A stretch of 64,000 nt of DNA from Bugula neritina (lineage: Eukaryota > Animalia > Bryozoa). The translations under genes and the position numbers were made by a program. Of this stretch, positions 7,601 to 42,276 are shown in pieces (position 1 is the first letter of the stretch; every line of letters starts with the position of its first letter). The stretch spans positions 10,668,480-10,732,479 of the forward strand of contig OZ037771.1 in assembly GCA_964035545.1 (NCBI GenBank). Direction: 5' to 3'. The notes below the pieces were generated by a model that was given only the letters and a program-made list of their open reading frames with translations, was not told where the DNA came from and did no database searches.

Positions 7601-10600
7601 ATTGCTTATGTTAATAAGATGAGTCCAGTAGAGTACCATCTAGCTGTAAAGGCTATTTATGACAAAACTCTTTCTGACTGCATAACTTGGCATAGCAAAT
7701 TCTATAAAATCAAGCGCAGCCTTATTTTAGCAATTAAGAAAGCCAATGGAATAATTACTGATTGTACTGACAACACTCTTCTCACTGAACATCATAGTAA
7801 ATGTGCAACTCTTTCGGAAATTTTGGTGGATACCATAGGTTTTTCTGATTTAATATTAGAACTAGACGAAGTTATTTTATCTTTAGATTATTGCATGTCT
7901 AAGTCTATTCCTATGTCAAGGGTTCAGTCACAGAGCATGAATTTTGAACACCATGAATCTGATCCGTCCGGTCCGGTCTTGTGGAGATGGGCATGAGTGG
8001 GGGCGCGGGTCATGCACCGACTATGGTCATGTTGGATTGGTTGTTTCCTTCTAGATCACACCCTAGCACACGTGAGGCTACTCTTGCATCAAATTCAGGT
8101 ATCACAGCAAACGGTAGTGACAGGCAGGTACTACGGGAAGATCATACATCCAGTGAAGCTTTGGCATCAAATCCAGGTGTCATAGCAATTTGCTAGCAGA
8201 GCATTTGCTAGCAGTTGAAGACCAAGAAAACATTGGGATGAAAAAGTATGGTAGTCAGGTTATAGAAAGCCTGCCTAAGTGTTCCAAATTCAAGTACTTG
8301 GGCACAATAATCCACCAAAAAGGAGGCTGCTGGAGGCAGCTTGAGTTGAGAATATCCAAGGCTTGGAATAAGTGGAGAGAGTTGTCTGGTGTGCTCTGTG
8401 ACAAAAAATGCCTACAAAACTGAAAGTGCTGATTTATAAAACAGCTATCAGACCAGTGCTGCTATATGGAAATGAGACATGGCCTATCACAAAATCTCTG
8501 GCGGGTAAGATGTCATCATGTGAGATGCGCATGCTGCGATACTGTTTAAACGTCAGTTTAAAAGATCATAGGCCAAATGAAGAAATAACAGCAGAAGCCA
8601 GAGTGATGCCGATTAAAGACCTGATGAGGAAGAGACGAATGCAGTGGTATGGGCATGTTAGAAGAAGAGAAAGTGAGGATGACATCTGGAGAGTGTCAGA
8701 GATGACAGTTGAAGGAGTTCGACCTAGGGGTAGACCGAAGCAAAGATGGTGTGATACAATAAACTCAGACCTTAGATGGCTTAATCTAGATGGTGCAGAT
8801 GCTGAAGATCGAGTTCGATGAAGAAGTCTGATATAACTTGGTATCAAGCAAAAACCCGCCACGCGCGCAGGACCACGCCGGTGAAAGGTGACCAATTTAA
8901 ATGTTGAATTGTAGAACATTCCCAAAATATTCATCTCAGAAAAAAAAGAAACTATTCTGAATATTTTATGATTCTTTTTACTGTTCTCTAAACATTTCCA
9001 TTGACTTGCAGGCATGATATATAAACAAATGCTTTTAAAGCATATATAGCTATCTGCTATGTTTGACATTTTTAGATCAGATATTGTTTAAAATTACAAA
9101 TTTAATCTATCTATTTTAATACATATTTTTATATCTGTAATAATATTTTTGGTAAGAATATTAAATAGTAGGGTGGCCTAGTTATTTTTATAGTATAGAT
9201 GTTTAAATACGTGAACATGTTAATACAAATGAGTCAGTGCCTTCATAAACGTACAGGCTTGTGTTCCAACCCATAATTTGGATCATTTGGATTTTAGTAA
9301 GACAGGGCTGACTAGTGTAGCTATATTGTGTGAGATGAGCATGCTATTATTGTCCTAAGAGTTGAAAAGTTAACAGTTCTAAACAGAGTGGTGACAGCCA
9401 GCAAAACAAATGATAATATGATAGCTGCCAGCTTCAGAATTGCTCAATTACCCAAAACCACAAATATGGTTTAAAGTTTTCTTTTTGTGAAATTTATCAA
9501 AAACACAAATTTTTAAAAAATTTCCAAAACTGCTAATATGTGTCTTATCCTAAAATATTAATCTCAGAAAAAATTAAACTCATACTAGTAATAGTCTTCA
9601 CTCAAACCTTATATTTCTACTAATTTCATGGGCCTTAATCTATATATCATGGAAACTGCCCTTCCGCCTGGTGGGAGGAGACTACTTCAAAATACAAATG
9701 CCCCTAGAAGGACATCTATTCATTACTTCTTCATCAATGTGAAGCGTAAAAGAATTCAACGAAGAGATAAGAAAGATATATTCTCGTGTTAGCTATGTCT
9801 TACATGTTTGGACATAGCTGTTTGGCAACAAAACCTAAACTAGATTTGTTCAACAATCTACCAACGCAAGCATCAATTGAAAATGGGTTTCATGCAGAAC
9901 ATATGCCAACAATATTGCTAACAGGTTCTGGACCCATTAAATTCTCTGTATCAGGAGATTCAAATTATTATATTGTGGTGGCTCGTAGAGCTACCAGCAA
10001 CACAATACGCAAGGTTGTGTATTGACCCGGAACGATGTACTAGCCAATTAGCTAAGCTGCTTATGAGTAATAGTAGCAGCTTCGCGCTACTAGCTCAGTT
10101 GAGGATAGTGCTGTAAATTAAATAGACGTGCGTATAATTACTGTTGTATATTAGATTTTATTATGTATTCTTGTATTCAAATATAACGATATCTACTCGA
10201 ATTATCTCGGTGAAGTTTCTCTAGTAATAAATAGACTCTCTTGGTTGCACATCGACCCTAAATCCGAAAATCATAACAGTGGTGGCAGCGGTGGGATAGT
10301 GTACATCAAAGATGGAGACTGAAAATGCTAGAATGCAACCACCCCCAGTAGAAGGTGAGCGTAGAAATGATGTTAACCCTGTGAATCGTGAGGGAGAAGA
10401 AGCTTATAGATATTGCTTGAAAGCTCCCATCCTTTACTGGGTCAGAAGATGTCGAACAGTTTATACAAGAATTTAGAGAGGTAATGGAGATTGCTCAATG
10501 GCCGCATAGAGTGGCCCTTATCCAATTGCGGAGAGCGTTGACGGAGCAAGCCAAGCCGTACGGAGTGGGAACGGACGTAAAAGGGATACTGGCTGCGCTG

Positions 10601-13600
10601 CGGGCCCGTTTTGGCATCTCCGAAATAGACGCTAGGACCAAGCTACAGAGATTGTGCTGCACCCCGCGGACCTCGCTGCAAGAACATGCCGCGACGGTGA
10701 AGAAGCTGGCACAGATTGCGTATAGTGACCTACCAGCGCAACACCAAGAGCGTTACACATACGACGCCTTTGTCCAGTCGCTAAACGACCTGGGCCTACA
10801 CCATCAACTTCGAGCTAAAGGGATAACCAGAATAGAGAATGCCCTGAAGGCTGGAGAAGCTTACCTGTTGGCTACCCAAATGCATCGAGCACAACGGAAC
10901 CCACCAGTAGTTGGAGTCAGTGCTGCCAGGGCTACAACAGGCCCCGAAGCTCCCCCGCTGGAAGCCGAAGTGGACCGTATGGTAGAGATGCTGGGACAAC
11001 TGGTAACAATTCTGGCCGGCGCTGGCCCCGGTCAGGCCCTGCGGGTGCCACCAACACCTGTGGGGCAGGGCTGGAGTAGTGCTGGTCAGGACCACGGACA
11101 GAAAGGACGACCCCAATACCAGGGGGCGTTAAACTGTCACGGCCCGCGGACACTCTCCCTCCCCGCGGGCCACAACTGAAGGAGTCTGGTGGGACACGCC
11201 GTCGTCTGTCCGTACGGACACGACGGAACACTCCCCCCGAGTGGCAGGTACCACGCAGGACTAGCAGGCCCGCGCAACGGCCAAGTACCTTCTCCATGCC
11301 ACTCGCCAACCGGTTCCACCGGTTACCTTGGGAAGAGGAGCCCGCCACTGAAATGGAGCCGGAAGGCCCAGTGGAGAGCCCCAAACCCCGCCGGCACCAA
11401 CCTCGCCGCCGGAAACCCCGTAAACCACGGGTGAAACCCCCGCCGTCCTATCAATTTAAGACAGCACATGCGGGGGGTGAAAGTACAACCACATGGAGAG
11501 AGCTATTTCCTACCCGGAAAGGTGGCCGGCAACGCCCTCACTTTCCTGCTCGACTCCGGTTGTACTACCAACCTTCTCAGTCGTAGAGTCTTTGAGGCAC
11601 TGCCCCGCCGGGACAGGGATAGAGTACGACCGTATACGGGGGAACATGGCACCCTGGCAAACGGGTCATGTATTCCCTTCTACGGTATTATCGAGCTCCC
11701 TGGGCGTGTCCGAGACCAGGCTGTACAGGAGACTTTTGTCATAAGCCAACTGGAGGAAGATGCTATCCTCGGAATGCCCTTCTTGAAGCAACACCAGTGT
11801 CGAATAGACTTCAGCAAGTCGGTGGTGCTGATGGGCGGGCGAGAACTCGCCTGTATGGATAAGTTTGGGCGTCCTCTGGTGGGCGGTGTTCAGGTAGTCC
11901 GAAACTGCACCGTGCCCGGACGCTCCAGAGCTACTATCCACTGCCGAGTGAACAGCAACCGGATAGCCAGGCTCGGGGTCGTTGAAGGCGCGCACGAAAG
12001 GATCCAACTCGCTAGTAGTTTAAACCGACTAACTGAGCGAGGGGAGGTCTTAGTGCAGTGTGTCAACCCCTTTACCGAGCCCATTGAGCTCCCAGCTGGG
12101 TCAATGCTGGGCCGGTTCCACTCCGTCCAGGAAGAGGACGTGGGCCCGTCGCTGGGTGACGCGACGGAGACACCCCCTCGACACCCTACTCAGGGGCGAG
12201 GGGCAGTCCCAACACATCTCCGAGAGTTATATGAAACAGCCTGTGGCGGCTGTGCGAGCAACAAGGAACGCCAAGCGATGGCGAAGTTGCTACGCGACTA
12301 CGGTGATGTGTTCAGCAGCGGAGATCATGACGTGGGGCTGACGGGAGTGGTCAGACACGAAATACCGCTGACTGCAGGGACAGTCCCTGTCCGGCAACCC
12401 ACACGCAGGCTGGGGCCGGAAAAAGAGAAGGAGGTTAGCCGACAAGTACGAGATCTTCTGGACCGCGGCCTCATAGAGCCCGCCCATAGTGCGTGGAGCT
12501 CACCGGTCGTACTGGTCCGGAAGTTGGCAGTTGGCGGTTCTGTGTGGATTACCGCAAACTCAATAACGTAACAATACAGGACGCCTACCCTCTACCTCGT
12601 ATTGACCAGTCATTGGACGCCCTAGCTGGCAGCAAGTACTTCAGTACGTTAGACTTGCTGAGTGGCTATTGGCAAGTCCCTCTGAGTCCCGACGCCCAGG
12701 AGAAAGCGGCGTTTATCACACGGGACGGGTTGTGGAAGTGGAAGGTGCTGCCCTTCGGGTTAACCTCCGCCCCAGCCACCTTCCAGAAGCTGATGGAGCA
12801 AGTCCTTAGCGGGCTCCATTGGAAGACACTGCTGGTCTACCTCGATGATGTCATCGTGATCTCCCCAGACTTCGAGACACATGTCAGTCGTCTGCAGGAG
12901 GTTTTCGAGAGACTCCGAGGTGCCGGTCTTAAGCTCAAACCTTCCAAGTGCGCTCTATTGCAGCCGGAGGTCAAGTACCTGGGGCACGTTGTCGGTCGGA
13001 ACGGCGTGGCAACGAATCCCGAAAAGGTACGGGCGATAGAAGACTGGGTCACCCCCCAAGACTTGACCGGACTCCGGGCTTTCTTGGGGCTGGTAGGGTA
13101 TTACAGGCAATACATACCGGACTTTGCGGGCATAGCCCAGCCGTTAAACCGGCTCACCGCAAAGGGAGTGACGTGGCAGTGGACCCCAGTCGAACAAGGA
13201 GCGTTCAACCGCCTCAAGGGCTGCCTGCTAACGACGCCCATCTTGGCCTACCCAGACCCCACTCTGGAGTACATCCTCGACACGGACGCCAGTGACCAAA
13301 ATGTTGGCGCTGTGTTGTCTCAAGTGCAAGAAGGCCAAGAGGTAGTAGTAGCCTACTACAGCAAGTCTCTCTTACCCGCTGAACGAAATTACTGCACTAC
13401 CCGCAAGAAGCTTCTGGCAGTAATCAAGTCAGTGAAGCACTTCAGACCATACTTATACGGCAGGAAGTTCCGGCTGCGTACGGATCATGCCTCGCTGATC
13501 TGGTTGTGCAAGAGAGCAGAGCCCTCCAGTCAGGTCGCCCGGTGGCTCGAAATCCTAGCTGAATTCTCCTACCGGATCGAACATCGACCGGGCAGGAGAC

Positions 13601-16600
13601 ACAGCAATGCGGATGGGTTGAGCCGCCAACCTGATGGAGGTTGCAAACAGTGTCTCAACATTGAGAGGAGGGACGGAGGTCCCCCGCGATGTGAGTTAGA
13701 GACGCTGTCTCGCCATGGAGCACCGTTTGACTGGGACCAGGGTCAACTCAAACAGGAGGTTGACGAGTCCCCGGAGGTTGTACAAAACCTCCGCGCCAAC
13801 CCTGTACTGGCCGATAATGTCCGAGAGCTGAAGAAGCTCCAAGAAGAGCTACCTGGAGTAGTGGCAGACATATATCGGGCCAAAAAGGAAGGGCGACGAC
13901 CCAGCGAGGAACGCGCAAGACAGGGATGCGCCGAGTTCCGGCTATACTGTCAGCGTTGGGACTCGCTGCGGATCGGGCAGGATGGTCTACTGACCATTTC
14001 TCTAGCTGCCAGCGGCAGACACCCGGAAAGGAAAAGGGTGGTCTGTCCCACTGCCATCCGCCGTGAGCTGATTTGGGACACTCACAAACAGGCCCACGCA
14101 GGGGTCAAGAGAGTGATCTCCAAATTACGGCTCCGGTGGTATTGGCCACAAATGGAGCGTGACGTCCGACTCAGAGTCAAACAGTGTGAGATCTGCCAGG
14201 CCAGTAAACATAGCCGCCCCCCTGGTGAAGCGGGACGGCGGAGGCTATATGCTGGAAAGCCCTGGCAAGTAGTCGCTGTAGACCTGGTCGGACCCATGCC
14301 CCTGACCCCTAGAGGCAATAGTTGGATCTTAGTACTGGCCGACCACTTTACTAGGTGGGCGGATGCTCTGGCTATCCCAGATGCGTCAGCCCCAACAGTG
14401 GCCAGGGCACTAGACCAACATGTATTCTGTTATTTTGGTCTCCCCGAACAGATACACTCTGATCAAGGCGCTCAGTTCCAGTCTCAACTGATGAGCAACC
14501 TTTGCCATCTCTGGGGAATAAATCAGAGCTGGACCACCCCCTACCACCCTCAAGGTAACGGGGTGGTGGAGCGCAACAACCGGATGCTAGGTGATGCGCT
14601 CCGGAGTCTCCTCCTTGGACGAGGCCAAGAGGAATGGGATACGGTGTTGCCGCAAGTCATGCGTGCATACCGTAGCACCCCATACACCAGTACTGGTGAG
14701 ACCCCAAACCTCTTGATGCTCGGGAGAGAGACTCGTGTCCCTGACCATCTTACCTACCACGTTCCAGAGCAAGACAACTCGGTTCACGAGTATGCCAGTG
14801 AACTAGTGGAACGGATGAAGGCCGCACACGATATACTGCGTGAACAGCAGTGGAAGGTGCGGCACGAAGATTCTGAAGAACCACCTCTCTACCAAACGGG
14901 AGATAAGGTGTGGATGGTCAATTACCGTAGGCGTCGCGGACAGGCTGACAAACTAAAGCCTAAGTTTGTAGGACCCTACGTGATCGTCGAGGCTATGCCC
15001 AATCATACGTACAAGATTGAGCGCTCAGGACAGGTGTCTATCCAGAATGAGTCTCGCTTGAAACCGTATTGGGCTAGCCCCGACCCGGTGGGAGAAGCCC
15101 CCCCGTTGTTGGAGCCCAGGAGGCAGACAACAACACGCGGGCGACGGCGGCATGGACCTGAATACGAAGTGGTCATACCGCGGGAAGAAAACTTGGTGAG
15201 AGAGGAGCGACAGCTTTTGCCAACGGAAGCGTGTCCGCCACCGCCAAGTCTAACTCCATCACTTCCAGAAACCGAGCCGGTTCCGGAAGTGCAAACCCCC
15301 ACGAAGGGAGGGGCTCCATCCGGAGAACAAGAAGAGGTGACCGCTAACGGTGAAGTAGAGACGCCATTAGAGGCCCCTACTAACGAACCGGTGAGCGTGT
15401 CACCCCCCCTAGAACGGGGACAGCGTACGAGGAAACCCCCACCATATTTAAAAGACTTCGTATGTGACTGCATTAGAAGCGGCACGCATGAAAGTCTAGG
15501 GGAAAACCGTACGATAAAATGTTGGAGTTGTGAACCCCACGCAAATATCAACTTTTGCGAGGGCGGAATAGTGGGAGGAATTAATGCGCGTAAAGCAAAT
15601 AGTTCCGACCTCGTGCCTCAGAAACGATGCTCAGTCTTTTCTTATGCTGACATCGCCAGAGGCAGACGTATATCACAACCAACTCCAATCTTACCAAGAA
15701 CGTTGAGTATGGACATTAATACCGAGTTTACAGGTAAGCCAGTATAAGTCTTGTATTCCTATCCATGGAAACGGGCTCGATGCCAGTAAATTCTGAACTA
15801 ATTCAACAGATTGAATCAGAATTACTGGGAACCACGTTTCACGTGAATGACGATGAAGACACTGTAATGGCCGACGGTCTGTTAGACCTGGAGCTAGACA
15901 CTGTTCTTGGTCAGTCCACACATGATTCACTGGTTCCTCGAGTGCATTCTAAAAGTTGTGACTCTCAGGCTAGTAACAGTCGACCGTCACTAGAATTATG
16001 TTGTAAAGATCCACCGTGATCTAACAATAATTCTACTTTTGTAGACACACTCGCGCCCGTCTCTCCGGGCATGCCTTCTCTAGAGATGGCATGGGACCCA
16101 GAGCCGGCCTCACCAACTTCCACAACCGGACAACTGCCACCCCAGTTGGAAGCAACCTCTAACTGGACTACCCCTGCCACAGAGAAAGAGATCAAGACTC
16201 ATAGAGGAGATGACAGTAACCGCAAATGTCGCCTATGTCAGCAGCGGTTTACAACCCATCGTAGGCTGAGAGTCCACTTGCCGCAGCATTACATCACAAC
16301 GTTCTGCCCCTGCGGAGAATATACACAAGATAGTTAAGGGCATCCTCACTAAGAATATCATAAATTTCTCTCAAAATGTAGTTCGGGTTCTTGAATAATA
16401 TTGCTCTGCGGGTGGCATGTGTGTTGCCTACTTGTAATTGTTTAGCCTAAGATTAAACTACAACCAATAAGCAGCAACCTTCGTTAGGGCTGCGTTATCT
16501 ATCAACATTCCATTATTGGTGCTACATAAACAAAGTACAAAGCAAGCTATTCATTATAGCCTGCCAGCTAGCTAGGCTGTAATTATTATGTAGGCGCCAA

Positions 16601-19600
16601 TATCTTCTCATCCCTACGTGCTCAGTGAAGCGTGAAGTGCTGCGAGCTGCTAGTTTCTTATGAGAAAATATGGCATTTTCAGTGTATAAATCACCAATTT
16701 ATGAGCATTCTAGCAGAGTTATTGAAAAAAGAAAAAAACCTACACTGGAGAAATATCTTAGGATTCCAGCAGTGCAATTTTTATTCAGATATCATGCTTT
16801 GCTGCTGAGATATTTTACTGGTACTGAAAAGTCAGCTTTTCAGGCAAAATTGGGCAAAATTCGGCAGTTTTTTGTCTATAACTTCGCAAAAAAATGAAAA
16901 TTGAAATTTCCAAAAAACTTACACTGGAGAAAAAGAAGATCTACAACATAGTTTTTAAATTTTGACTCTAGCACAATTAGGTGAGATTTTATTTTACTGG
17001 TACTGAATTCTTATATGATTACAATGCAAACCTCAGCAAGGCAGTTGCAGCTAAAAGGTTGCCCTTAACTATCCTGTGTAGTTACAATCGTGATTATCTA
17101 CTGCGTCACCAACGCACTATGCAGTGCTTTCAAGGACACGTCTATGAAGTAGACAAAGCATCATATCCCGCATTCCTTAACGCCATCAGACCCCTCATCA
17201 CTGACTCAGCTCTGCTGTCTCTCCTGGAGCAAGGCTTCCCCTCCCCTCGACCCATCATCTCTGAAACCATGGATAAGCCTACAAAATCAACTAACTCCCC
17301 ACCTCTCAGTCCTATACCTCAACCGCATACACTTCCCCGTGTCGTACTACAGAGGGTAGACACGAAGGCGTATACACTCCCTCCCCCACTTCCATCTTCA
17401 GAACGAAAACGGCACAGACAGCAGACCTTCTCTCGTTCATCTCCTCTGGCCCGCAACTTACGTGAAGTAGAAGCTAGGGCCCGCGACCTGGAGCAAGAAG
17501 TGTATAGACTGGCCCCGCGCATGCATGCTGCCTCCAGTGAGCTCAAGTATCTACAGGAGTCTATTAAACGCATGAGGCGGGCGGCCCACGATTAACATGA
17601 GTCCATCTCCAATTCCATACTACTCTTCCCCCTTACCTCTCTGTGGCATTCCCTCCTGTTACGGTGGCACGTACTCTACATGTAAATAGGACTTTCTTTT
17701 ACATACTTGCATCATTCATTGTGCATATATTTTTTTATATATACCTGTATCTCTTATCAGTTGGCTCTTGTATATACTTTTGTATCATTCTCTCTCTGCC
17801 CACTGATGTATAAGTTTTTTTACGTGAATTATATTTTTATCAGAAAGAGGGCTTTCTGCTGGAGGGGGCAGTGTGGTGGCTCGTAGAGCTACCAGCAACA
17901 CAATACGCAAGGTTGCGTATTGACCCGGAACGATGTACTAGCCAATTAGCTAAGCTGCTTATGAGTAATAGTAGCAGCTTCGCGCTACTAGCTCAGTTGA
18001 GGATAGTGCTGTAAATTAAATAGACGTGCGTATAATTACTGTTGTATATTAGATTTTATTATGTATTCTTGTATTCAAATATAACGATATCTACTCGAAT
18101 TATCTCGGTGAAGTTTCTCTAGTAATAAATAGACTCTCTTGGTTGCACATCGACCCTAAATCCGAAAATCATAACAATATGGACCTTAATGGTAGTCATA
18201 TTATGCTAGAAGTAAAAATTACCAAGGAAGATGGAACTAATATTGACAATTTTGGTGATGTTGGTCCTGTAAATCTCATCACACATTCACTCTTTCAGCA
18301 TATAGATGTGAGTTTAAATGATGTTGTCATTAGTAACGCATCAAATCTTTATCAATATCGAGCAGAGTTAGAGACTTTACTCAGTTATAATCAAGAAGCT
18401 AAGGAATCACAATTGTCAATGTTATTGTACTCCAAAAACACATATGAATGATGTCAATGATAATGTTCACCTGGCTGTTAGAAAAGCTATAGCAGAAGCT
18501 AGCCAAGTTGTACAGTTAATGATGAAACCTCATGCAGATATATTTGTTCAAAACTGATTCATACTAAATGATATGGACTGAAAACTGAAGTTAGTTAGAA
18601 ATAATGATAATCTAGTGCTTATGGCCCCTCAAAATTCCAGCTTCAAAATGAGGATTTTGAATGCATCTTTCTTTGCGTGAAAAGTGAAAATTAACTCTGG
18701 CATACAACTGAAACACATTGATAAATTAGACAAATTATTGCAGCTAGTTAGCTACCCTGTTAGGAGAGTAGATATAAAATCATTCAACTGAATCACTATC
18801 TTGAAACGAAGAAAACTTTTTCCACGGTATACTAGTAATAGCAATGGTAAATTCTAGAGCATATGAAGGAACTTATGAACTGAACTCCTTCAACTTTGTA
18901 CATAATAATCTTAAATACTGTAACTTGCTGGTTGATGGTAAAAGTATGCCACAGAAACCTCTAGTTTCAGATTTTACCAATCATAGTAGGTACCCTAAGA
19001 AATTATTTCATGCAGCTGAAATCAACCGGAAAGGTGTTCAATAATGGTGGTTTGGATATAAACAGATCAGATTATGAAAATAGCTATAGTCTATTGGCAT
19101 TTGACTTAACTTCAGCTTTGGATGAGAGTGGTTGTTATCACGTTATAAAGAAAGTCAACATTCAATTAGAGTTTAAGTTTGACCACGGACTTGACCAGCC
19201 TGTTAACGTAATAGTGTATTCTGAGTTTGATTCAGCTATAAAAATAGATAAAAATAGAGCTGTACTTACCAACTTCTTCACACAATGAACACAAAAGAGA
19301 TGTACTCCATTCTCAACAGTGATGACAAAGTAAAAGAGATGAACTTTCTCGGCGTGTTGCCAATTGATAGAATTTCAAAAGAAGCTCTTCAGGGTTTGTG
19401 CTGTGCAGTCATCAACACTAAGCCTCACACCCATCGGTGAGAAAACTGGGTATGTTTTGTCAAGACAAACAATGAAAGAGCTATCTACTTTAATAGTTTT
19501 GGCTACCAACCCTATAATTTAGCACAGATGAATGTTGTTCTTGACAGTGTAAGTGAATGAACTTTTAATTCCTTTCAACTACAGTCTTTATTTTCTACAG

Positions 19601-22600: not shown

Positions 22601-25600
22601 CTGTGCTGTTAATAGATGTATTGCATTAAAATTCAACCCTCATTTTCGTCGCAATAGGTGATCAATAAAAAAAACGTACACTATCAAATTCTTTATGAAT
22701 AAGCCTAAAGAACCTGCTGACAAGCCTGAAATAAGAAGGTCAAGGCAAAAGGTTCTACTTATAGAAAAAATGTGTTGTTGCTGAGAAGATAAAAAGCCTA
22801 ATCAAACAGCATGTATAAGTTCTAGCTGTTTATATAGAGAATAAAATTTGTAATTTAATAGTAAATGACATTGAGAACTAAGATAAGCAGATTAGAGTTG
22901 CAGAATAATATTGTAATGATATTTTAACTGAATAAATAGAATGAACTTTGTAGATATTTTTGATATTTTAGATCATTGAACTGGTTTAGTATAAATGTGT
23001 ATGCATGCTTGAGCTCATTTAAGTCATTGAGTGTAAAGTGAACATAAGTCCATATTTATCATGAAAATAATATAATAAATTTGGAGTTGTCTCTAATCCC
23101 TATCAGTTTAACACGTTTGCACGTGTCCCTGCACACTTCCGATTTTCTACTAGTTATGTAACTGTAATGTGATAATATACCGCTAAATATATTGTGTGAA
23201 CTATAGTAATATGTAAAGTCGGTGCTTGAAAACAAAGAAAAAACAAAAGAATAAATAATACATAAAAAGTAAAAAAAAATTCTTAAAGAGAGGAAATTTG
23301 GCTTTTAAACAAAAAATTATCATAGATCATAAAGTTGAAAAAGCTGCGAGGCCTAGTAACATCTTCATCAAGGTGTCTAAAATTTTCAGACTAGAGGGCA
23401 GCTTTAATAATTGTTAGTTAGAGCTAAAGAATCTGGTTTTACATGCATTCAATTAGTCTTACCTCCACACAAAGACAGTCTTTTTCCGAAAGTTCTAACT
23501 CAGGTTGCTTGTCTTTCAAACATCGTACAAGTTTACCTGCTAGATGATAAACTCCCAGGCTATGATCAAACCTCGTGCCATTAGCTCCAGGGTACACATA
23601 GTGTACGGTGGACAACTAAATAAATAAATAGCTCTGTAAACAAGAAGCCATATGAAAAAAAAACAGTCAGAAAACTTAAAAACAATCTCAAATACTTTAA
23701 GTTAAAATTTTTAGCCTTGTTTATTAATCATTAAATAACTTATTTTTATATTTAATACTTTTATTTTTATATATCAAATATATCACAGTTTTCCTGTTTG
23801 GTCAAAGCAAATTCTCATTTTTCTTGTTATCTGTGAGTCTTGCTGACTAAATTATTTAAGATGGCTACTTGAAAATGATGAGTGGATTAAAATAAACAAT
23901 TTGCCTTGATATTTACAGTCAGATGCTAGCCAGTAAAATATAATAATAGTAAAAAATTGGTGCCAGTGCATGTTTTGGTTTCCTTGCCATTCGAAATTGT
24001 CAACTTAGAAAGAGACACTTCTAAAAACTGACACATTTAAAATGAGATCGTTTGAAAATAGACAGCCCAAAAATCAGGCATATTGGAAACTAGTCAAATG
24101 CAAAAACAACTGTTTCCGAAAATGGGCATCTTTGGCATGATTCATTCAAAGAAAGATTCAAGTGTATTTTGTTATAACATAAAGCATTTACTGTCGGGAG
24201 ACAATTTACATTATGTTTAATTTTTGATATGTCCATGCACTAGAAAATAATTCTGTATTTATAGACCTGCTTGATATGACGAAGTCTTTGAAACTGAGGA
24301 GTGTTTATGATGAGAAGAGCTGCTCTGTGAACTTCAATGTAGTCGTATATCGGATCCTTGAACAGTTTGCTTTGAAGGGGAGTTTCCTAATAATTATCCC
24401 GAACTAAAGATAACTTGCATCAACTTTGTAAAAATTTGCAATATTTATGGCATTTTTACACATGCATTCACTTTACACAACGAGCTACTCCAAAAGGAAA
24501 GTATTGACTTTTGCACACACTAGTTCAATATTATAGCTCAGTAAATACTCGAAAAATAAAGACTTACTCTTTTTAAAACTGCTTGACACTCCAAATTACC
24601 AACTCACGGTATAATATCATTTGATAGTATAACAAGACAACAATATAATGATATAATAAAAACTACCTAAGAAACCAAAAGGAATACATATAATAGAAAA
24701 CTGCTGGGTTTCTACTACATTGATATGATAATGCTTATTTTAAGCAGTTTAAATTTTTTTATGGCTTATGCAATATGTTTATTTTTCTAATAATCAAAAT
24801 AATAGGTTGAGTGACAAAATTTGTGATGATCATATTTAAAAGCTGAAGCTTAATATTGTAATGGATTTCACTGGTGCAATTTATGTTAGTATTATATCGA
24901 AAGGGTCGACTCTATATTGTATGCTATAGTGGAGTTCGACTACATTGACCTCCTGCGACTTGTAGCTATGGCCAACAGTGGCACCACTAGTAACAACCAA
25001 TCAGAACTGACATTCTAATTGATAGCAGGTAGAGCTAGCTACTCGTAGTGGAAGCGCGCTGAGTAGCTAGCCAGGCAGAGCAGCTTGGGACTTCGTTTAG
25101 AGTAGTTGTGTATTGAAGCTCACTAATTATGTAATGTTTCTATTCATGTTTAGCAGTAATTAGAACTTCTTGTATCGTGTAAATAATAAACTTATCATAG
25201 CGTAAACAACCTGGTGTAGTGGCTTTGTTTAAGTTGACCCACACATAATATAGTGAATTGTGAAATTCACTACAGTGGTGGCAGCGGTGGGATTCCACTT
25301 AATACAAATGCTCCTAGCCAGGGAGTAAGATGGCCGACGAGGACGACGCGCCCAGACAGGGACCGGCAGCAGTAGAGGAGGATCACATAGGCGGCCCAGC
25401 GCTGCCTATGGACAGGTACCACTTGCGGGCTCCCATCTTCTCAGGGGAAGAAGATGTGGAGCAATTCATCACTGAGTTTAGTGATGTGGCGGACATCTGC
25501 GGATGGCCGAATAGGGTTACTCTGATCCAGCTGCGGTTATGTCTGACAGGGCCGGCTAAACCCTATGAGATAAGCCAGAATGGCGGTGACATATTTTTTA

Positions 25601-28600
25601 AGCATTACGAGCTTGGTTTGGATTAACCGCTCAAAATGCTTGCGTGCAACTGCAGGGGCTTAGGCAAAATCCTAAGACCAACCTGCGAGAGCATGCTACC
25701 GCAGTCGAACGACTGGCACAAGTCGCCTACGGTGACTTGCCTGCTGATAGTCGACAGAGCCTAGCACTGGATGCATTCCTCCAGTCTATTAACAACCTCG
25801 GTCTGAAACAGCATCTGCTGGTGGCCGAAGTTGAGACTATGGAGAGAGCTCTAAGGCTTGGGAATGCCTATTTTTAAGCCGACAGTGCGTGTCGACCTGG
25901 TGCGACGATACAGCAGGTCGGAGCAGACGACGACGTGTCGACGTCGCCGGCGAAGACAGCTGTACATGTCGCCTCGGCAGCAACAGACAAATTGACTAGC
26001 TTGACCACAAGCTTGATTCAAAAACTGCTAGCCGAGATCAGGCAACTGCGCCAGCAGTCGACAGCTGAGCGACCCAGGAGGTCGTCGGTAGCTGTCGACG
26101 ACAGGCGCCGCCCCGTATGCTGGGGCTGTGGTAGTGGTGGGCACTTCATACAAAGTTGCCCCCGCGGTAATGGGAGACAGTTGAACAGCAACGGCCCACG
26201 GTAACTTCCGCCAACCGTGGGCCCCAGTTTAACCCCCCAAGGCAGAGGCCAAGGCCCAAACCCCACCGGGTGAGGAGGCCGCCTTCGCCAGAGTGGCAAG
26301 CCCCAAGGAGAGTTTGCAGGCCGCAAGGCCCACCAAAACCTCTGGCTTGGGCACTCAAAAACCGCTTTGAAGGTTTGCTTGATGAGGGAGTGAACGACGA
26401 GTGGGAGCAAAACAGGGATTTTCCTCGGTTGCCCACACGAGCATCAGTCCGAGAATTCACTCGGCTGCCCATGTGTAAGCGAGACCGAGACGTAACCTGC
26501 CAGCCCCTGCGACGTCGACGACCCCCTCGCAACCGAAAAGCACAGGTGCATCCCCAACTCCATGCACATGAAGTGTCGCCTCAAGAGACGAACTGCTCAG
26601 TGAGCGCTCAGCCATATGGAAGCAGCTATTTCCTCCCCGGCAAACTTGCCGGCAAAGCTGTCACGTTCCTGTTGGATACTGGGTGCACCACAAATCTACT
26701 GAGTCGGCGTCTATTCGACACTCTCAGTGCCAGGGAGAGGGCTAGCCTAGAACCATATGAAGGGGAACGTTGGCGGACGGGTCGTGTATTCCTTTCTATG
26801 GGGTAATCTAGTTGACTGGTAGAGTCCATGATCAGACGATCAGTGAGACCTTCATCGTCAGTCAACTCAAGGATGATGCCATCTTGGGCATGCCATTTCT
26901 GAAGCGACACAGGTGGTACATCGACTTTAGCAAGTCGGCGGTAGTGATGGCCGGGCGTGAGCTGGCCTGTGTCGACCGATTTGGCCGACCCTTTGTGGGG
27001 GGAGTGCAGGTGGTACAGCGTTGCACTGTACCTGGGCGCTCCTGGGCTACAGTTCGCCGCAGAGTGAACTGTAGCGAAATCTCCGAGTTAGGAGTGGTGG
27101 AAGGTGCACTGGGGGGCGTCCAGCTCGCTAACAGTCTGAATAGGCTGGATGAGCCGGGGGAGTTCCTAGTCCAGTGCGTAAACCCTTTCACGGAGCCGGT
27201 AGAATTGCCGGCTGGGTCTCTAGTGGGGAAGTTCCACTCCGTACAAGAGGAGGATGTAGGGCCTGCGCTGGAGACGGCGGACGAAGCCCGTGGGGTACCC
27301 ACTAGAAACGGCAGGGGGCCGGTGCCTGAACACGTAGCGGAGTTGTACGAGGATGCCTGTGATGGCTGCGAGAGTAAGCGAGAACGCCTGGTGATGGCGC
27401 GGCTACTCTCTGAGTACAAGGACGTGTTCAGTTGCGGCGACCATGACATGGGTCTGACTAAGACTGTCTGTCATGAGATACCCCTGGCGGCGGGGACGGC
27501 GCCCATCCGGCAGCTGACCCGCCGGTTAGGTCCTGAGAAGGAGAGAGAAAAAGTGAGCCGTCAGGTGCAAGACTTTCTGAACCGGGACCTAATTGAGCCA
27601 GGCCATGGGGCCTGGAGTTCTCCAGTCGTCCTGGTTTGGAAAAAGAATGGTAGCTGGAGGTTTTGCATTGACTATCGCAGGCTGAACAGTGTCACCATCC
27701 AGGACGCTTAACCTCTTCCTTGGATCGATGAGTCGCTCGATGTCTTAGCTGGTAGCAAGTTCTTCAGCACGTTGGACTTGCTAAGCGGGTATTGGCAGGT
27801 GCCCCTGAGTCCTGAAGCACAGGACAAGGCCGCGTTTATAACGCGGGATGGGCTCTGGAAATGGAAGGTGTTGCCATTCAGACTTACGTCCGCACCGGCC
27901 CCCTTCCAGCAACTCATGGAGCAGGTCCTGAGTGGGCTGCATTAGAAGACCTTGCTCATCTATCTCGATGATGTCATTGTCATCTCCCCCGACTTCGACA
28001 CACATGTCAGTCGACTCAGGGAGGTGTTTGACAGGCTTCGAGCTGCGGGTCTGAAGCTCAAGCCCTCTAAGTGTGCATTATTGCAACGCGAGGTTAAGTA
28101 CCTGGGCCATGTAGTTGGTCGAGACGGGGTCGCCACCGACCCCGAGAAGGTACAGGCTGTGAGGGACTGGGCTGTCCCTGTCGACCTCCCTGAATTGCGG
28201 GCATTCCTGGGACTGGTAGGGTACTATCGTCAGTACATACCAGACTTCGCCGGAATTGCACAGCCGTTAAATCGGCTGACAGCAAAGGGTGTGCGATGGC
28301 AGTGGACGCAGGCCGAGCAGAAGGCATTTGACCACCTGAAGGATCGCCTGGTGGAAGCACCCATCTTGGCGTATCCTGACCCTGCGAAGGAGTACATTTT
28401 GGATACTGATGCCAGTAACCATAATGTGGAGGCTGTGCTATCGCAGGTCCAAGATGGTCGCGAGGTGGTGGTGGCTTACTATAGCAAGGCCCTGTCGGCG
28501 CCTGAGAAGAACTACTGTACAACCAGGAGGGAACTCTTGGCAGTAGTCAAGGCGGTCAAACACTTTAGACCATATCTATATGGGCGCACATTCCGTCTTC

Positions 28601-31600
28601 GGACGGATCATGCGTCTTTAATATGGCTGTGTCGACGGGCGGAACCATCAAGCCAAGTAGCGCGCTGGCTAGAGATCCTGGCAGAGTTTTCTTATCGGAT
28701 CGAACATCGACCCGGTAAGAAACACGGTAATGCCGATGGACTCAGCCGCCGCCAGGTAGATGGGTGTAAGCAATGCCAGAATATTGAGCGCAGGGACGGT
28801 GGACCCCCTCGCTCGGACGTTGAAGCGCAGTTGGGGAAAGCGGCTGTATACAGCTGGGAAGAAGGGCAACTCCTGTCCGAATCTCCTAACGAAGCTGTTA
28901 ACAACCTTCACTCAAACCCCACGTTGCTCAGGAACGTCAGGGAGCTATGTCAGCTCCAGGCTACGCTACCAGGGGTGGTAGCTGACCTAGTCCGGGCCAA
29001 GAAGGAGGAACGGCGGCCGAGTGAGGCCAAACAGCAAGTGAAGAGTGCAGAGTTTAAGTATTTCTGTGACTGCTGGGACTCCCTCAGGTTCAACAGCAAT
29101 GGACTGCTAACGATCACGTTGGCAGCCGGCACCAATCGCAGTGAACGAGAGAGGGTAGTCTGCCCGTCTGCTCTGAGGCGGGAGTTGATCTGGGACACCC
29201 ATAGGCAAGCTCACGCGGGAGCTAGCCAGGTGACTAGGTGTCTTCAACTCTAGTGGTTTTGGCCCGGTATGACCCGGGATGTCCGACTCCGGGTGCGGAA
29301 GTGCGAGGTGTGCCAAGCCAGCAAGCATGGCCGCCCCACTGAGACCGCAGAAAGGCGTCGCCTCCATGCCGGTCGTCCGTGGCAGGTAGTTGCTGTCGAT
29401 CTGGTAGGCCCCATGCCCACAACCGCGAGAGGTAATAACTGGATACTGGTATTAACTGACCATTTCACGCGGTGGGCTGATGCACTGGCTATTCCAGATG
29501 CGTCGGCCCCCACGGTGGCCAGAGCCTTGGATCAGCAGGTGTTCTACTATTTCGGCTTGCCGGAGCAGATACACTCTGATCAAGGCGCCCAGTTTCAGTC
29601 GCAACTTATGAGCGATCTCTGTAAAATGTGGGGGGTAAACCATAGTCGGACGACCCCGTATCACCCGCAAGGGAACGGGGTTGTGGAGCGGAACAACCAA
29701 ATGCTAGGGGACTCTCTGAGAAGCCTGCTCATCGGTAGGAGCCAGGAAGAGTGGAACTTGGTGCTGCCGCAGATCATGCGAGCGTGCCGTAGTACCCCTC
29801 ACTCCAGTACACTGGAGACCCCTAATTTTCTCATGCTGGGGAGAGATTCAAGGGTTCCTGAGCACGTAACCTATCATGTTCCGGCTCCCGAGAGCAATAT
29901 CCACGATTACGTGGAGAAGCTCGTAAAACGCATGGGGACGGCTCACGAGGTGCTACGTGAGCAGCAGTGGCAGGTCAGAAGCGTGACTCTGACGACCCCC
30001 CTTATATAAGATGGGAGACTGGGTCTGGATGACCAGTCATTGCCGACGGCGCGGACAGGCAGCCAAGTTGCAGCCGAAGTTCGTAGGACCCTACTGCGTA
30101 ATTGAGGTAATGCCAAATCACACCTATAAAGTGGAACGATCTGGACAAGTGTCGATCCAGAACGAGGCACGGCTGAAACCTCACTGGGCAAGTCCTGACC
30201 CGGCAGGTCAAACACCTCCTCTCTTAGAGCCCGCTAGACGCCTTCCTATGAGGGGGCGAGGCATGGCGTATAAGGAGATTGAGGAGATACTGCCAGATCA
30301 GGACGGGGCGGCTGACGCGCCGCCCAACCAGTCCCAGCCACCTCCACCCCAGGAGGAGGAGGCCGACACACCAGAAGACCTGTCAGAGCCGGCCCCACCA
30401 CCTGTGGAGCCGGTCGACAGGCCCATCGCCCCGGATGAGATGGAAATTCCTCAAAATCATGAGGAAGAGGCAGCTGGGGGAGGACCACCCGTAATGGTGA
30501 ACCCCCCCGTACTGGCGACACCACCCGTGGTGGAAGAGTCGCCAGTCGCAGCAAATTCCCCGGTACCGTTGGACTGTAGCCAACGTACCAGGGCGCCACC
30601 ATCTTATTTGCGAGACTTCTTGTGTGACTTGGTCGACATGCACAGTATTCTGTAGCATGTCAACATGCACAAAGAAGTCTGGGGGAGCGAGGTAATTGAT
30701 AACATGCTACCCAGTGGCGGATTGAATAGGTCAGCCGGGGGTCAGCAGAGCGTAGCCAACTCAACAGCGTATAGGGTATTACATAACCTCTCTAGCTGTG
30801 AGCGCTCTTTTCAATTGCAACCAGCAAACAGGCAGCACGTTTTTTGCAGTAAACAATTTGGCTATCTACGAGCCCTAAGAAAACAGCAGCAACATTATGT
30901 CTTATGCAGCAACTGTTTTGGGGGTAAGTCTACTAGAAATTCTATGATAATTAATTTAATTAATTAGAATTTACTCTGGTAGCGACAGCAGTCTCGCTTT
31001 ATCATAATGATAAAGTTGAAACTCCTGACACCAAACGATATTTTGATAGTTAGAGTGGGACGGTCGACTCAACTGGTTACACGATCAGTTAGTGACAGAC
31101 TGTGAGACTCGATTATCAGTATCGTTTGGAACGGGAGTCCCACGCATAGAGTGTGATTCAGATGAATTTAAATACTCTATTGCAGGTAAGACTGAGTCTG
31201 TATCCGACGAGATACAGGCACTACTCGACACACCAACGACTAACTGGGACAGCATGTCAGAGGCAGGGGTAGACATGCTGTCCGACGTACACCTGCCAAC
31301 ACTGACGGACTTACCGACAATAACTGACAGACATACTGCAATGCAACTGGACATACCCGACTTGACCGAAACCACTGACAGGACTATAGCGCTGCCCCAA
31401 GCACTACTTCGACGGACGAACTGGACTACTCGACGGACTCGTACACTAATCCAAGCACTTATAGGGACAGACGACAACAGACAATGCGCGGAGTGCAGAC
31501 GAACCTTATCGACTATGAAAAGACTGAAGATACATATTCCCCAACATTTCACTGTGACTTTCTGCCCCTGTGGAGTCCACCATTTCTGCAGGGACACCAT

Positions 31601-34600
31601 ACTACACCACCAGAGAACTCAAGACTGTTATGTAGGACACCTATATAAAGTTGACGCAGACTCTTACACCGAATTTCGAGACCTAATCCTACCCCACGTG
31701 ACTGACCCGGACCGACGGCAGACCCTCCTAGACCACTTCCCCGCTACCCGACCCACAGTAGAGAGTGACTCCGACGCAGACCCCCAACCCACAGAGATGA
31801 CGACACACACCTCCGACGTAGCTATTCAACCCCTACGTGTTATTGTAACCCGTGCTGGACGCACTGTAGCTGACGACTCACACCCCCCAACAACGACGAT
31901 CTCCTATGTACCCCGACATACTCGCAAGAAGAGGAAGGGTGCTAGCCACACACCCCGAGATGACAGCGACCCTGACCAGTCCCTGCTAACTGACATTAAG
32001 AAAGTGCAACGGCGTATGGCTCGCCTCAGTAAAGAACAGAAGCGAGCGGCCACTGAGCTGGCTAAGTTGCAGACTCGACTGGAGAGACGACTGGCCAGGA
32101 AGTGATAGAGATGCGGTCACCCCCCCCCCTCTTAGACTGAGTAATGTAAATAGATAGGTGTTATGGACTATGCGAGTAAAGACTTGATTATTCTACTTAT
32201 ACTATTCTGTACTGTACAGGGATGTAGTGGTACCCATACGGTCCCATACGCCGTATGGCCTAGAAGAAAATAGACTGTTCTAGGCCATACGCCCGTATGG
32301 GCATAATTATTTTTGAAAGATGATTAGTGCACAGAATAGTTTTGGCATCCCCACTGAGAATATCATAAATTTCGCTCACAATCTAATTTAAGTTCTTGTT
32401 ATGTTAATGCTATGTGGGTGGCATGCGTGTTGCCTGCTTGTGATTGTTTAGCCTGAGATTACACTATGAATAATATGCAGCTATCAACATTCCATCTTCT
32501 TATCTCTATGTGTTCACTGAAGCACGAAGTGCTGTGCATTGGTGATTACTAAGGGAAAAACCTTTTATTTTCAGTGTATAAATCACTAACTTGTAGAAAA
32601 TCTATGATGGCTATTAAAAAGATCAAAAGATTTGCCATGCATAAATTTATCAGGTTTCCGACAGTGTTTGTTCTATTCGAATACCATGCTTTCCTGATGA
32701 GATATTTGGCAGGGATTAAAAAATAAATTTTTCAGGTAAAATTGGCCAAAAATAGGTAGATTTATGTCTAACTTTGCAAAAAAATATTGAAAACTCAAAA
32801 AAGCAGGTGCTCTGAGGAACAGGAAGATCTAAAACATGGTTTTTAAATTTTAATTCTAGCACAATTAAGTGAGGTTTTATTTTGCTGGACTGAATTCTTA
32901 TAATATACCAATAATGTGGCCTCAGCAAAGCAGTGACAGCTAGAAGGTTGCCCTTATCTACCTTGTGTAGACTTGCATTTTGTCAATAAGCAATGGAATT
33001 TGGAAAAAACCAACATGAAATTCAGAAATAGAATCAAAATGTCTTCAAGAAAAAGTACCAGGTGTGTAGGAAAGGCTAATGAAAATTTATCACTGAGGTC
33101 TACAGGTACTATATTCACATTTTGGTCAAAAACCTAGCGTTTTTTACATGTTAATTATTAATGCAATAAGGTTTTGCAAATTGTAAACCACCATAGGTAA
33201 CCTTTTATGTTTGATTGTACTAACGTCTGGCTTTACATTTAATTATCTTCTAGGTTAACACATAATATTAAGCCTGTCAAATTTGTTCTTTTGATGTATA
33301 TTTCCTTGATGTATCTAGTGGAAGCTCAGGGGTTTTATTTTAAAACCAAGTTAACATACTCTTCTTGGGTGTGCTTTATGGTGTGTAAGGAGGTGTGGCT
33401 GTATCACCTTATGGATTAGACTAGTACTCTAATAAACTCCAAATAGGTTTTCAACCAATTTCTGCTTGTCAATAAGTTATCAATTCAAACTGCTCTTTAT
33501 AAATAACCAGCACACATTTCCTGATTAGCAATCTTCCTCTGTTCTGATCTATTATTCTTTTTCTGTGCACGACAGTGTATTAGTTATTTAAAGTAATCAG
33601 GTTGCATTTGGAGAGCACTTGTTACATGCTTCTATCCTTCCATCTTTTTGAGATATTCAGCAATTTTTCTGTACAGGTTGGACTTAGTGTCAGAACAAAC
33701 CTAACTGCAGTTAAGTAAGACTACATTACATTACATTACAGTAAACAGGTATGGGAGACAATACTGAATATTTATATAGTTTGCAGCAATGCCCATGCAG
33801 TCGTCATGTAGCTGGTATGGTATGAAAATAATAGCGAGGTGCACATTTCAACACAAATTTTTTTCAGAAGAATTATAATTCACAATGGCTTTAAATTGCA
33901 TAAATTTGCATCAGAAGCGCTCTGAAGGCTTCGGCGGCGCTGCCCCGGACCCCGCAGGGGGCCTGGGCGGCCCCCTGAACCCCCGGCTTGAGAGTATGGC
34001 CTAGAATATTTTTGCCACTACATCCCTGGTACTGTATATATATATTCTTTTTCCAGTTGTGTATATCTCTAGTTTTGTAAAACCCTATGTTATTTCCAAC
34101 CGTTATCTTGTTTTATTATTGTCATGTAAATAGTAATCATAGAGTGTATCTTTCGATAAGTGTGGAGAGTGTAATGGATTTCACTGGTGCAATTTATGTT
34201 AGTATTATATTGAAAGGGTTGGCTCTATATTGTATGCTATAGTGGAGTTCGACTACATCGATCTCCTGCGACTTGTAGCTATGGCCAACAGTGGCACCAC
34301 TAGTAACGACCAATCAGGACTGACATTCTAATTGATAGCAGGTGGAGCTAGCTACTCGTAGCGGAAGCAGCTGAGTAGCTAGCCAGGCAGAGCAGCTTGG
34401 GACTTCGTTTAGAGTAGTTGTGTATTAAAGCTCACTTATTATGTAATCGTTTCTATTCATGTTTAGCAGTAATTAGAACTTCTTGTATCGTGTAAATAAT
34501 AAACTTATCATAGCGTAAACAACCTGGTGTAGTGGCTTTGTTTAAGTTGACCCACACATAATATAGTGAATTGCGAAATTCCCTACAATATCAACACTAA

Positions 34601-38230: not shown

Positions 38231-38925
38231 TAAGGATTTTGATATGTTTGCTGTATAAATGGGATGCATTACAGTGCTGAAACTTGCGAGTTAATAGGGC
38301 TGTTTAAAAATTATTACAAAACGTTCTTAAAACAATTTTAGCCTTTGTAAAGATGATGCTCTAAGAATTAAGAAAACCCCAACAGAAACAGGAAATTTAA
38401 AAAATAAAACTGCAAATTATTAAAGGTGTTGTCTATCGAAGTTAATAAATCTATTATAAAATTTTTATCCTCAAATCTAAATATCATATACTTATATAAA
38501 CAATGATTATAAGTTACAACCTACGATGAAGTGTCTTTTATCTCATAACAATTAAAATTATTTTATTGATCTTAGCTGCTATCTAAAATAATTACCAATC
38601 ATTTTAAATCTATAAAACCTTTGTGTAAGTCAACGCATTCCCAAGCTGAAAACAAACTAACAGCTATTTTCATTTTGAAAACTTAAATTTCTCCTATATC
38701 CTATACATTCATTAGTTTGTGCTTTTTGAATTTAAAATAAATTGGCTCAGTTTGTATACTTAATGAAGGTAATCTAGCAAAAATGGGGCAGAATCGGGGC
38801 AGAAGTCATTGGGCATGATGTGGTGTTTTGTAAATTTATCCCCTCATTACATATTATTCATGTTATTCATGCTTTTAAAATATGACTCCTCGCCTCCTTA
38901 TTTTGTTTCGTTTTTGCTCATTCAT

Positions 38926-41900: not shown

Positions 41901-42060
41901 GGGCTAGACTCTCCATTCTCGGAGTTCAGCTGATTTTTAATCGATCTTCAATAATCAATCAGGTTGAAACCTAATTGAAGAATTCTAGATGGAATTAGGG
42001 GACGAGTCATCCCTTTACCTGTCGGATCAGGACATGGGGTTGGCAGCTCTCTTAGGTTCA
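38926..42060 (+). mobile_element. Decayed, internally deleted Gypsy copy 3 (same lineage)
   Basis: Putative 5' LTR 38926-39235 (TG...CA), PBS TGGTGGCAGCAGTGAGAT, gag remnant with C*GCGALGNVRQQC knuckle, TTTAAAC at 40123-40129, then dUTPase-like and integrase pieces ([22 protein letters not shown]). PR, RT and RH are missing. No 3' LTR found, so the right end is approximate. Confidence 0.85.
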
Positions 42061-42276
42061 CCTGAGCACCATGTAAGCAATTGCCGGCTTTTCTGACATA
42101 TATTATACGCTTGGCCATGTGACTTCCATAATGACCTATATATTATATACTTGTTTACATGATCTTTGTGACATATATATTATATGCTTAGTCATGTGAC
42201 CTACATAGAAGAAATTTTATCAAGTTTCTACTATTTGTCTGGTATTAAAGTAAACTTATTAAGAAATGACTAGCCA

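Follow-up and report, generated by a model that had tools for sequence, protein, structure and literature searches.

A zinc-finger module behind integrase in Ty3/Gypsy elements of Bugula neritina and its possible role as an integrase appendage

The 64,000-nucleotide stretch of Bugula neritina DNA analyzed here (the window; assembly GCA_964035545.1, contig OZ037771.1, positions 10,668,480 to 10,732,479 of the forward strand) contains two full-length Ty3/Gypsy elements, here elements 1 and 2, and one deleted relative. Both full-length elements carry a third open reading frame (ORF3) behind integrase, whose core of about 120 residues is a real and apparently undescribed domain family; an entry in a repeat database is possible. 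Two features, read from sequence, are new here: among 146 proteins with a near-complete core, five carry the module in the frame of the integrase tail (0.09 in shuffles), and the open pol frame of each window element extends to a splice donor that matches ORF3 in phase. ORF3 was tentatively taken, somewhat short of probable, as a C-terminal appendage of integrase by which the integration complex would be anchored on host DNA or chromatin. A functional module with nucleic-acid binding in the nucleus is quite likely, and much likelier than any single role. The original prediction had left nuclear regulator and tether roles unranked. Its zinc-finger protein, carried by the element, conserved and distinct from Env, with a basic patch and a heptad helix, stands, while the in-frame fusions and the phase-matched donors call the free-standing third gene into question.

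In element 2, the ORF3 frame extends from stop to stop over 351 codons (31050-32105), with a chance of 3e-8 at the local composition. The 337 open codons first reported were counted from 31092, an in-frame GTG; the first ATG, at 31254, would give 283 residues, but coding probably starts behind the splice acceptor, at 31186, and 31050-31185 is probably intron rather than coding sequence. All motifs described earlier (both fingers, the YEVD-type block, the basic patch and the C-terminal helix) were found as written in this copy, the ligands being C146-x2-C149-x12-H162-x3-H166 in finger 1 and C172-P-C174-x12-H187-x5-C193-x3-H197 in finger 2. The N-terminal stretch is acidic, with a net charge of -11. 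No hydrophobic segment was found, in line with the predicted lack of a transmembrane segment, the highest 19-residue Kyte-Doolittle mean over the 351-residue frame being 0.74. The claim that no furin site is present was not literally correct, as RKKR (residues 292-295) formally fits the consensus, but this match is meaningless without a signal peptide.

Modeling of the 123-residue core by AlphaFold2 with an alignment of 103 rows gave a predicted local distance difference test score (pLDDT) of 95.7 and a predicted template modeling score of 0.87, and the core is confidently predicted to fold as a C2H2-like finger pair with extra helices. In a longer model it was followed by a disordered linker and a 43-residue helix. 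C146, C149, H162, H166, C172, C174, H187 and the Val-Asp of YEVD are near-invariant, with C172, C174 and H187 kept in 102, 103 and 100 of the 103 rows, respectively. The fourth ligand of finger 2 is variable in position: 102 rows were examined, and in 75 of the 77 parsed a Cys or His follows at a distance of 3-12 residues. The last His of this finger, part of the motif first described, is not a family trait, being H in only 23 of 103 rows, and the exact pattern of the original prediction occurs in 13. The helix of finger 1, by contrast, is nearly fixed in the same 103 rows, with R/K at +2 in 90, R at +3 in 74, R/K at +5 in 77 and V/I/L at +6 in 74.

In the model, finger 1 has the features of classical C2H2 fingers (PF00096 clan), namely the C-x2-4-C-x12-H-x3-5-H spacing and a beta-beta-alpha fold. 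In Pfam, ORF3 scored above no family cut-off (C2H2-type scores of 16.5-17 bits against cut-offs of 27-30), and zf-C2H2_4 was matched at E ≤ 0.01 by 11 of 93 family members. In structure, the two fingers superpose weakly on C2H2 pairs in DNA-bound form (Kaiso, SALL4, ZBTB20 and CTCF), with Z of 3.4-3.8 over 50-57 residues; for Kaiso, Z was 3.8 and the root-mean-square deviation (rmsd) 2.7 over 57 aligned residues, and for SALL4, 3.5 and 2.6 over 51. The best fold Z was 3.8 for the core and 4.6 for the whole model, the latter from the helix only. Fold searches of PDB and BFVD gave no match at E ≤ 0.001, which is not proof of a new fold, and the best hit in the PDB sequence search (E 0.002) covered finger 1 alone. 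In the ESM Atlas, unnamed clusters were returned at 0.95-0.96 with C2H2 families below them, without an alignment. According to the accessible text of PMC9838217, SALL4 helix residues of Val/Ile type contact thymine methyls in AT-rich DNA, and the similar +6 residue of finger 1 hints, by analogy and as a lead only, at contact with AT-rich DNA.

Outside the core, at least four K/R within six residues were found in 47 of 79 homologue tails (no control was run), and 40 of 91 long tails passed a heptad test, against 1.3 in shuffles. A homodimer prediction for ORF3 scored 0.29 against a mark of 0.32.

Of 601 candidates in a word-based search, 35 were ORF3 relatives, with identities of 41-89%. When 1.84 billion representatives were searched with a profile, 302 clusters scored E ≤ 0.001, 110 of them reaching 1e-10 and 33 reaching 1e-30; the best 150 were examined. 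One of these, P0150, was rejected as a generic multi-finger false positive, and 302 is therefore an upper figure. In total, 206 proteins were collected, near-duplicates included, of which the 146 mentioned above have a near-complete core. Among 30 homologue clusters looked up, four had a member with a named organism, all bryozoan (two Watersipora subatra, two Bugula neritina). Scans for the DNA context of the homologues gave 160 and 93 pattern matches in metagenome contigs and 0 and 27 in viral contigs, none confirmed, so the element context of the relatives rests on the protein sequences alone.

Several bryozoan proteins carry the module without integrase: P0192 and P0203 (Bugula neritina EB796_000763 and EB796_000764, which are neighboring locus tags), and P0171 and P0037/P0185 (Watersipora subatra). 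P0192, P0203 and P0171 have a common N-terminal region of about 55 residues, and P0037, P0203 and P0059 contain two module copies each. To judge from sequence, these integrase-free proteins may form a family of domesticated host genes, or the domain may have come from them.

The core is, by sequence comparison, under purifying selection. In the close family, its mean identity is 80%, compared with 46-53% for the N-terminus, linker and helix. Between the window copies, over 107 codons, the proportions of synonymous (pS) and non-synonymous (pN) differences were 0.73 and 0.36, respectively, and the ratio of non-synonymous to synonymous rates (dN/dS) was at most about 0.2, with dS near saturation. 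Since pN for Pol between the same elements is 0.08-0.17, ORF3 evolves faster than Pol, yet under constraint. Differences among family contigs were taken as the best-supported 40 of 310, of which 26 lie in the ORF3 exon; 13 of these are silent (25% expected, P 0.005), and without a cluster of seven neighboring sites, six of which came from a single contig in each run, 11 of 19 are silent (P 0.002). The open ORF3 beside a damaged gag-pol had also been taken as suggestive, with about seven lesions in gag-pol. About 10 lesions (stops and frame changes) were counted in its 5.3 kb, which predicts about 1.7 in 0.9 kb and none with a probability of about 0.2; the open frame is therefore not significant, and this argument for selection was dropped.

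The fusions link the module to integrase. P0191 (1460 residues) contains RNase H, integrase, the integrase tail, a 371-residue linker, the module and the helix in a single frame, and its core is 36% identical to that of ORF3 over 94 residues. P0195 joins the C-terminal part of integrase (53% over 137 residues to element-1 Pol) to the module in one frame, and in P0155, P0181 and P0205 the integrase tail motif lies upstream of the core. All five scored 53-58 bits on a profile built from the clade of the window alone, and the linker measures 230-410 residues in four of them. In a quick tree with 63 of 133 forks open, the fusions or their cluster representatives (P0156 for P0195, P0159 for P0205) fall in four places in the distant half, with both window copies in the opposite half. 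The fused label did not cluster beyond shuffles, in a label set that included P0166 and P0073, later not counted, and was without P0195 and P0205. A search restricted to proteins of 1300-3710 residues gave no hit at E ≤ 0.001 in 4175 candidates; this negative is weak, as P0191, of a length within this range, is known as a cluster member.

In the window elements the connection would be made by splicing. In element 2 the pol frame stays open beyond its stop and crosses a strong donor at 30924, which together with the acceptor at 31185 delimits a candidate intron in matching phase (coordinates in the table). In element 1 the pol frame is open for about 90-92 codons past the integrase tail (chance about 0.004) and stops four codons after donor 15734, the strongest of the element and of phase 1, with several phase-1 acceptor candidates downstream. 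The 23 residues between the acceptor and the first Met in element 2 match 15 other proteins, whereas the preceding 45 residues match one; the similarity thus starts at acceptor 31185, which implies an upstream coding exon, although late starts are common in gene callers and weaken the one-match count. Frame-breaking indels lie just ahead of this acceptor in family contigs, and one contig of run X1, a run without an RNA record, skips exactly 30924-31185. Summed contig depth was lower over ORF3 than over pol; depth is unfit to rank genes and ORF3 diverges faster, and no conclusion was drawn from it. Two other candidates were rejected: acceptor 15733 in element 1, which is followed by stops in both candidate frames, and stop read-through at 30653, whose context departs from the CARYYA motif.

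The following scheme is proposed. The module would be fused directly to integrase in some clades and attached by splicing in the clade of the window, where removal of the short intron would join the pol frame to ORF3, unspliced RNA giving plain Pol and spliced RNA giving Pol with the module. The basic helix of finger 1 would bind DNA, the basic patch would take the protein to the nucleus and the terminal helix would oligomerize it; nuclear location, nucleic-acid binding and dimer formation of ORF3 are predictions. The long terminal repeats (LTRs) of the two elements show no mutual similarity by blastn, as originally claimed, and the ORF3 DNA likewise does not align. Since the finger-1 helix is nearly fixed while the LTRs are unrelated, a constant target fits better than an LTR-specific one. 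ATAT makes up 1.5% of flanking positions, yet it is the target site of both elements despite their unrelated LTRs. The tether is favored as the most economical reading, since it accounts for fusions, open pol extensions and phases as well as for the fixed recognition helix.

Several points weigh against this reading. The case for splicing was made from sequence alone, none of the three runs being on record as RNA. The skipping contig, 1 of 262 in X1, has a short side of 24 bases and a 6-base microhomology spanning both ends, so that a deletion in the DNA would account for it just as well. Beyond the joint it agrees in sequence with the donor and the window copy but differs from the 14 X1 contigs that cover 31188; ahead of the joint it has one base more than the window, so the phase may be different in other family members. 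In element 2 a stop directly follows the integrase tail. Phases would match by chance in 1 of 3 cases, and element 1 offers several candidate acceptors. Where the core is preceded by more than 150 residues, the tail is present in only 4 of 19 proteins, and the bryozoan proteins carry the module without any integrase. The long linker could be cleaved by a viral protease, which would release the module; the ATAT preference may stem from integrase itself, and the fold matches, that of the helix apart, are all under Z 4.

Such a free module leads to a second explanation, which is considered rather unlikely: ORF3 might be a separate nuclear protein made from an env-like spliced message and acting as a transcriptional activator or anti-silencing factor of the element. 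Its layout of acidic N-terminus, finger pair, basic patch and heptad helix is like that of a transcription factor, and the bryozoan proteins without integrase, some with two copies, point the same way. Other upstream partners are possible, since a short ATG-led stretch lies ahead of the 3' donor in both elements, and element 1 has a second strong phase-1 donor early in gag (10355, 14 codons in); element 2, however, has no strong donor near its gag start. The ORF3s of LTR elements are typically separate spliced units, according to the accessible text of PMC5408684. The conservation of the recognition helix across unrelated LTRs argues against a regulator of this kind, and with the in-frame integrase fusions a protease would additionally have to release the protein.

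Basic C2H2 fingers can bind RNA, and the apparent intron would imply that unspliced RNA must be exported. An improbable alternative is thus a factor like Rev or CERV that binds the unspliced RNA of the element and exports it from the nucleus, as CERV of Cer1 does, a protein with a spliced message, a leucine zipper, a KRKK signal and a Cys finger in the available description (PMC10309623). The C4-type loop and G-protein-like domain given for CERV in that description are absent from the ORF3 model, the best fold matches are DNA-bound finger pairs, and fusion behind integrase is unsuited to a factor that acts before Pol is made. The roles of regulator and exporter are not exclusive of the tether, being compatible with it if protease or alternative splicing frees the module.

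That ORF3 is a captured host gene fragment, a passenger without a role for the element, is very improbable and largely refuted: host-like bryozoan proteins with the module and their own common N-terminal region, a broken copy in element 1 though its LTRs differ at one site, and a third, decayed element without ORF3 would fit it, but the pS, pN and silent-difference values given above indicate purifying selection inside the elements, and the module holds the same position behind integrase in distant branches.

The elements bear the structural marks of Ty3/Gypsy, with paired TG...CA LTRs, ATAT target-site duplications (9970-9973 and 18177-18180 for element 1, 24853-24856 and 34588-34591 for element 2) and a common primer-binding site, which we take to be of tRNA-Leu type. 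Pfam found the corresponding domain order of protease, reverse transcriptase (RT), RNase H and integrase. The nearest solved relative of Pol is Ty3 Gag-Pol (E 4e-112), and the Pol proteins of the two elements are 75% identical. As predicted, ORF3 lies between integrase and the polypurine tract, but in element 2 a 1.8-kb inverted-repeat element, presumably hAT-like, sits between the two.

Features of the window discussed in the text (positions in the window)
Feature	Position	Strand	Remarks
Element 1	9974-18176	+	305-bp LTRs, one internal difference within the pair
Element 1, 5' LTR	9974..10278	+	ATAT directly before
Element 1, gag-pol	10312..15747	+	Last pol frame 12490-15747
Element 1, 5' part of ORF3 homologue	15738..16323	+	In-frame stop 16017-16019; phase-1 acceptor candidates (e.g., 15819, 16044)
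Inverted-repeat element, 755 bp	16324..17078		Inserted at TA inside finger 2 of element 1
Element 1, 3' part of ORF3 homologue	17081..17595	+	Remaining finger 2, YEVD block, basic patch, helix
Element 1, 3' LTR	17872..18176	+	ATAT directly after
Element 2	24857-34587	+	418-bp LTRs, pair about 96% identical
Element 2, 5' LTR, TG...CA	24857..25274	+	4-bp target-site copy ATAT directly before
Element 2, primer-binding site	25276..25293	+	Identical 18 bases in element 1
Element 2, decayed gag-pro-RT-RNaseH-integrase	25330..30655	+	Pfam; about 10 lesions; integrase tail motif, then stop 30653-30655
Element 2, pol frame beyond stop	30656..30967	+	103 codons open, crosses donor 30924; chance about 0.001 by composition
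Candidate 262-nt GT...AG intron	30924..31185	+	Donor phase 1 in pol frame, acceptor phase 1 in ORF3 frame
Likely coding exon of ORF3	31186..32105	+	306 codons; first ATG 31254
Conserved core, about 120 residues	31392..31760	+	Trp-led helix, two zinc fingers, YEVD strand, two helices
Finger 1, C-x2-C-x12-H-x3-H	31485..31547	+	Basic recognition helix; Pfam C2H2-type scores weak, below cut-off
Finger 2, C-x-C-x12-H, then Cys/His at variable distance	31563..31640	+	Family alignment
Basic patch RKKRK	31923..31937	+	Predicted nuclear localization signal, from sequence
C-terminal heptad helix	31971..32099	+	Model residues 196-238, pLDDT 95-98
Inverted-repeat element, non-autonomous	32217..34028		8-bp target-site duplication; separates ORF3 from polypurine tract in element 2
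Element 2, 3' LTR	34170..34587	+	ATAT directly after

The original prediction had placed homologous ORF3s in both elements. A homologue is indeed present in element 1, with 41% identity to that of element 2 over 75 residues and 30% over 176, but it is broken by a stop and by the 755-bp insertion. An uninterrupted relative of this copy, P0038, is 70-85% identical by piece (83-85% for the 5' part). The insertion in element 1 is related to a second inverted-repeat element at 32330-32970 (74-80% identical), which is nested inside the 1.8-kb insertion of element 2; both lie in Gypsy 3' regions. The third, heavily deleted relative (about 38800-42100) is 38-60% identical to element-1 Gag and Pol and has a variant primer-binding site; neither an ORF3 match nor a second LTR was found for it within the window.

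Outside the elements the window is AT-rich animal DNA of about 30% GC. Element 1 is inserted into a major-capsid-like gene (9771-9973 and 18177-18451; Capsid_N E 0.002, below the cut-off) and is enclosed by inverted repeats of about 370 bp (6423-6796 and 19931-20305, 94-97% identical), its surroundings being likely a decayed Polinton/Maverick element. The region 8150-8820, without a Pfam match, presumably resembles the 3' end of a non-LTR retrotransposon RT. Two short minus-strand frames, 20773-21048 (HD domain, E 1e-6) and 58111-58437 (cytochrome P450, E 4e-4), are possibly host exons. A 2-kb element with long inverted arms (21124-23151) and minisatellites at 1739-2672, 6014-6450 and 53606-54646, with units of 23, 26 and 13 bp, were also observed.

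For animal LTR retrotransposons, the known integrase targeting modules are few, and so are the non-env accessory genes with a demonstrated function. Here a compact unnamed domain with hundreds of members occurs fused to integrase, split off by an apparent intron or in bryozoan host-like genes, and the question of whether an element's zinc finger picks insertion sites or regulates the element becomes testable. A small self-contained reader of DNA or chromatin, if true, would be of interest by itself. As a wider and doubtful proposal, a widespread marine-invertebrate Gypsy lineage might use this undescribed domain of zinc fingers for integrase targeting, as a second kind of module next to the chromodomain. 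One clade would keep it under splice control, a single element making integrase both with and without the tether (or a tether as well as a free regulator), and in bryozoans the domain would have been tamed as host genes.

The chromodomain of chromoviruses targets chromatin. Like the fusions found here, chromoviruses carry an extra module behind integrase, after the SH3/GPY-F region (accessible text of PMC2774666 and PMC12440569); unlike theirs, the present module is a zinc-finger pair with a heptad helix and in the clade of the window forms a putative separate exon. Pfam hits included no chromodomain, whether for both Pol ends and ORF3 (E ≤ 0.1) or for P0191 (E ≤ 0.01). A targeting domain of Ty1 integrase is listed under PMC7459421. 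Errantivirus Env and env-like ORF3s occupy the same slot between pol and the 3' LTR, on the sense strand and likely spliced, in the available parts of PMC13524379 and PMC5408684, whereas the present ORF3 has no hydrophobic segment and its predicted fold is a small zinc domain. By the tests run, the elements are neither env-bearing nor chromoviruses.

CERV of the Caenorhabditis elegans element Cer1, compared by its description in the accessible text of PMC10309623, is likewise an accessory nuclear protein (predicted to be so for ORF3) of an animal Ty3/Gypsy element, with a spliced message, a zipper, a basic signal and a metal finger. CERV overlaps gag exons and has a C4-type loop and a G-like domain, whereas ORF3 lies behind integrase with a C2H2/C2HC pair. 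Other non-Env extra frames, namely plant Retand TRP28 and other aORFs (PMC11963269, PMC7264820), rotifer GDSL/DEDDy ORF3s (PMC5408684) and the MDG1-group sORF1 (bioRxiv 10.1101/2025.03.14.642691), are, in the available text, conserved additions as well, with a nuclear location predicted or shown for some, but their domains are unrelated and none is described there as a zinc-finger pair or as integrase-fused. The module is not mentioned in the accessible parts of PMC13524379, PMC8556966, PMC12440569, PMC2774666 and PMC2836005, and the titles and abstracts listed in literature searches held no description of the ORF3 family, with Repbase, GyDB, Dfam, subscription journals and supplements outside this search.

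At the level of the fold, Kaiso and the ZFC4 of SALL4 (PDB 5vmu and 7y3k) resemble residues 22-78 of the ORF3 model, with the Z and rmsd values given above, and SALL4 shares the Val/Ile at helix position +6 with finger 1 (accessible text of PMC9838217). Unlike both, ORF3 has C-x-C spacing in finger 2 and lacks the canonical linker, and its flanking helices and strand are predicted to pack with the fingers into one domain of 120 residues.

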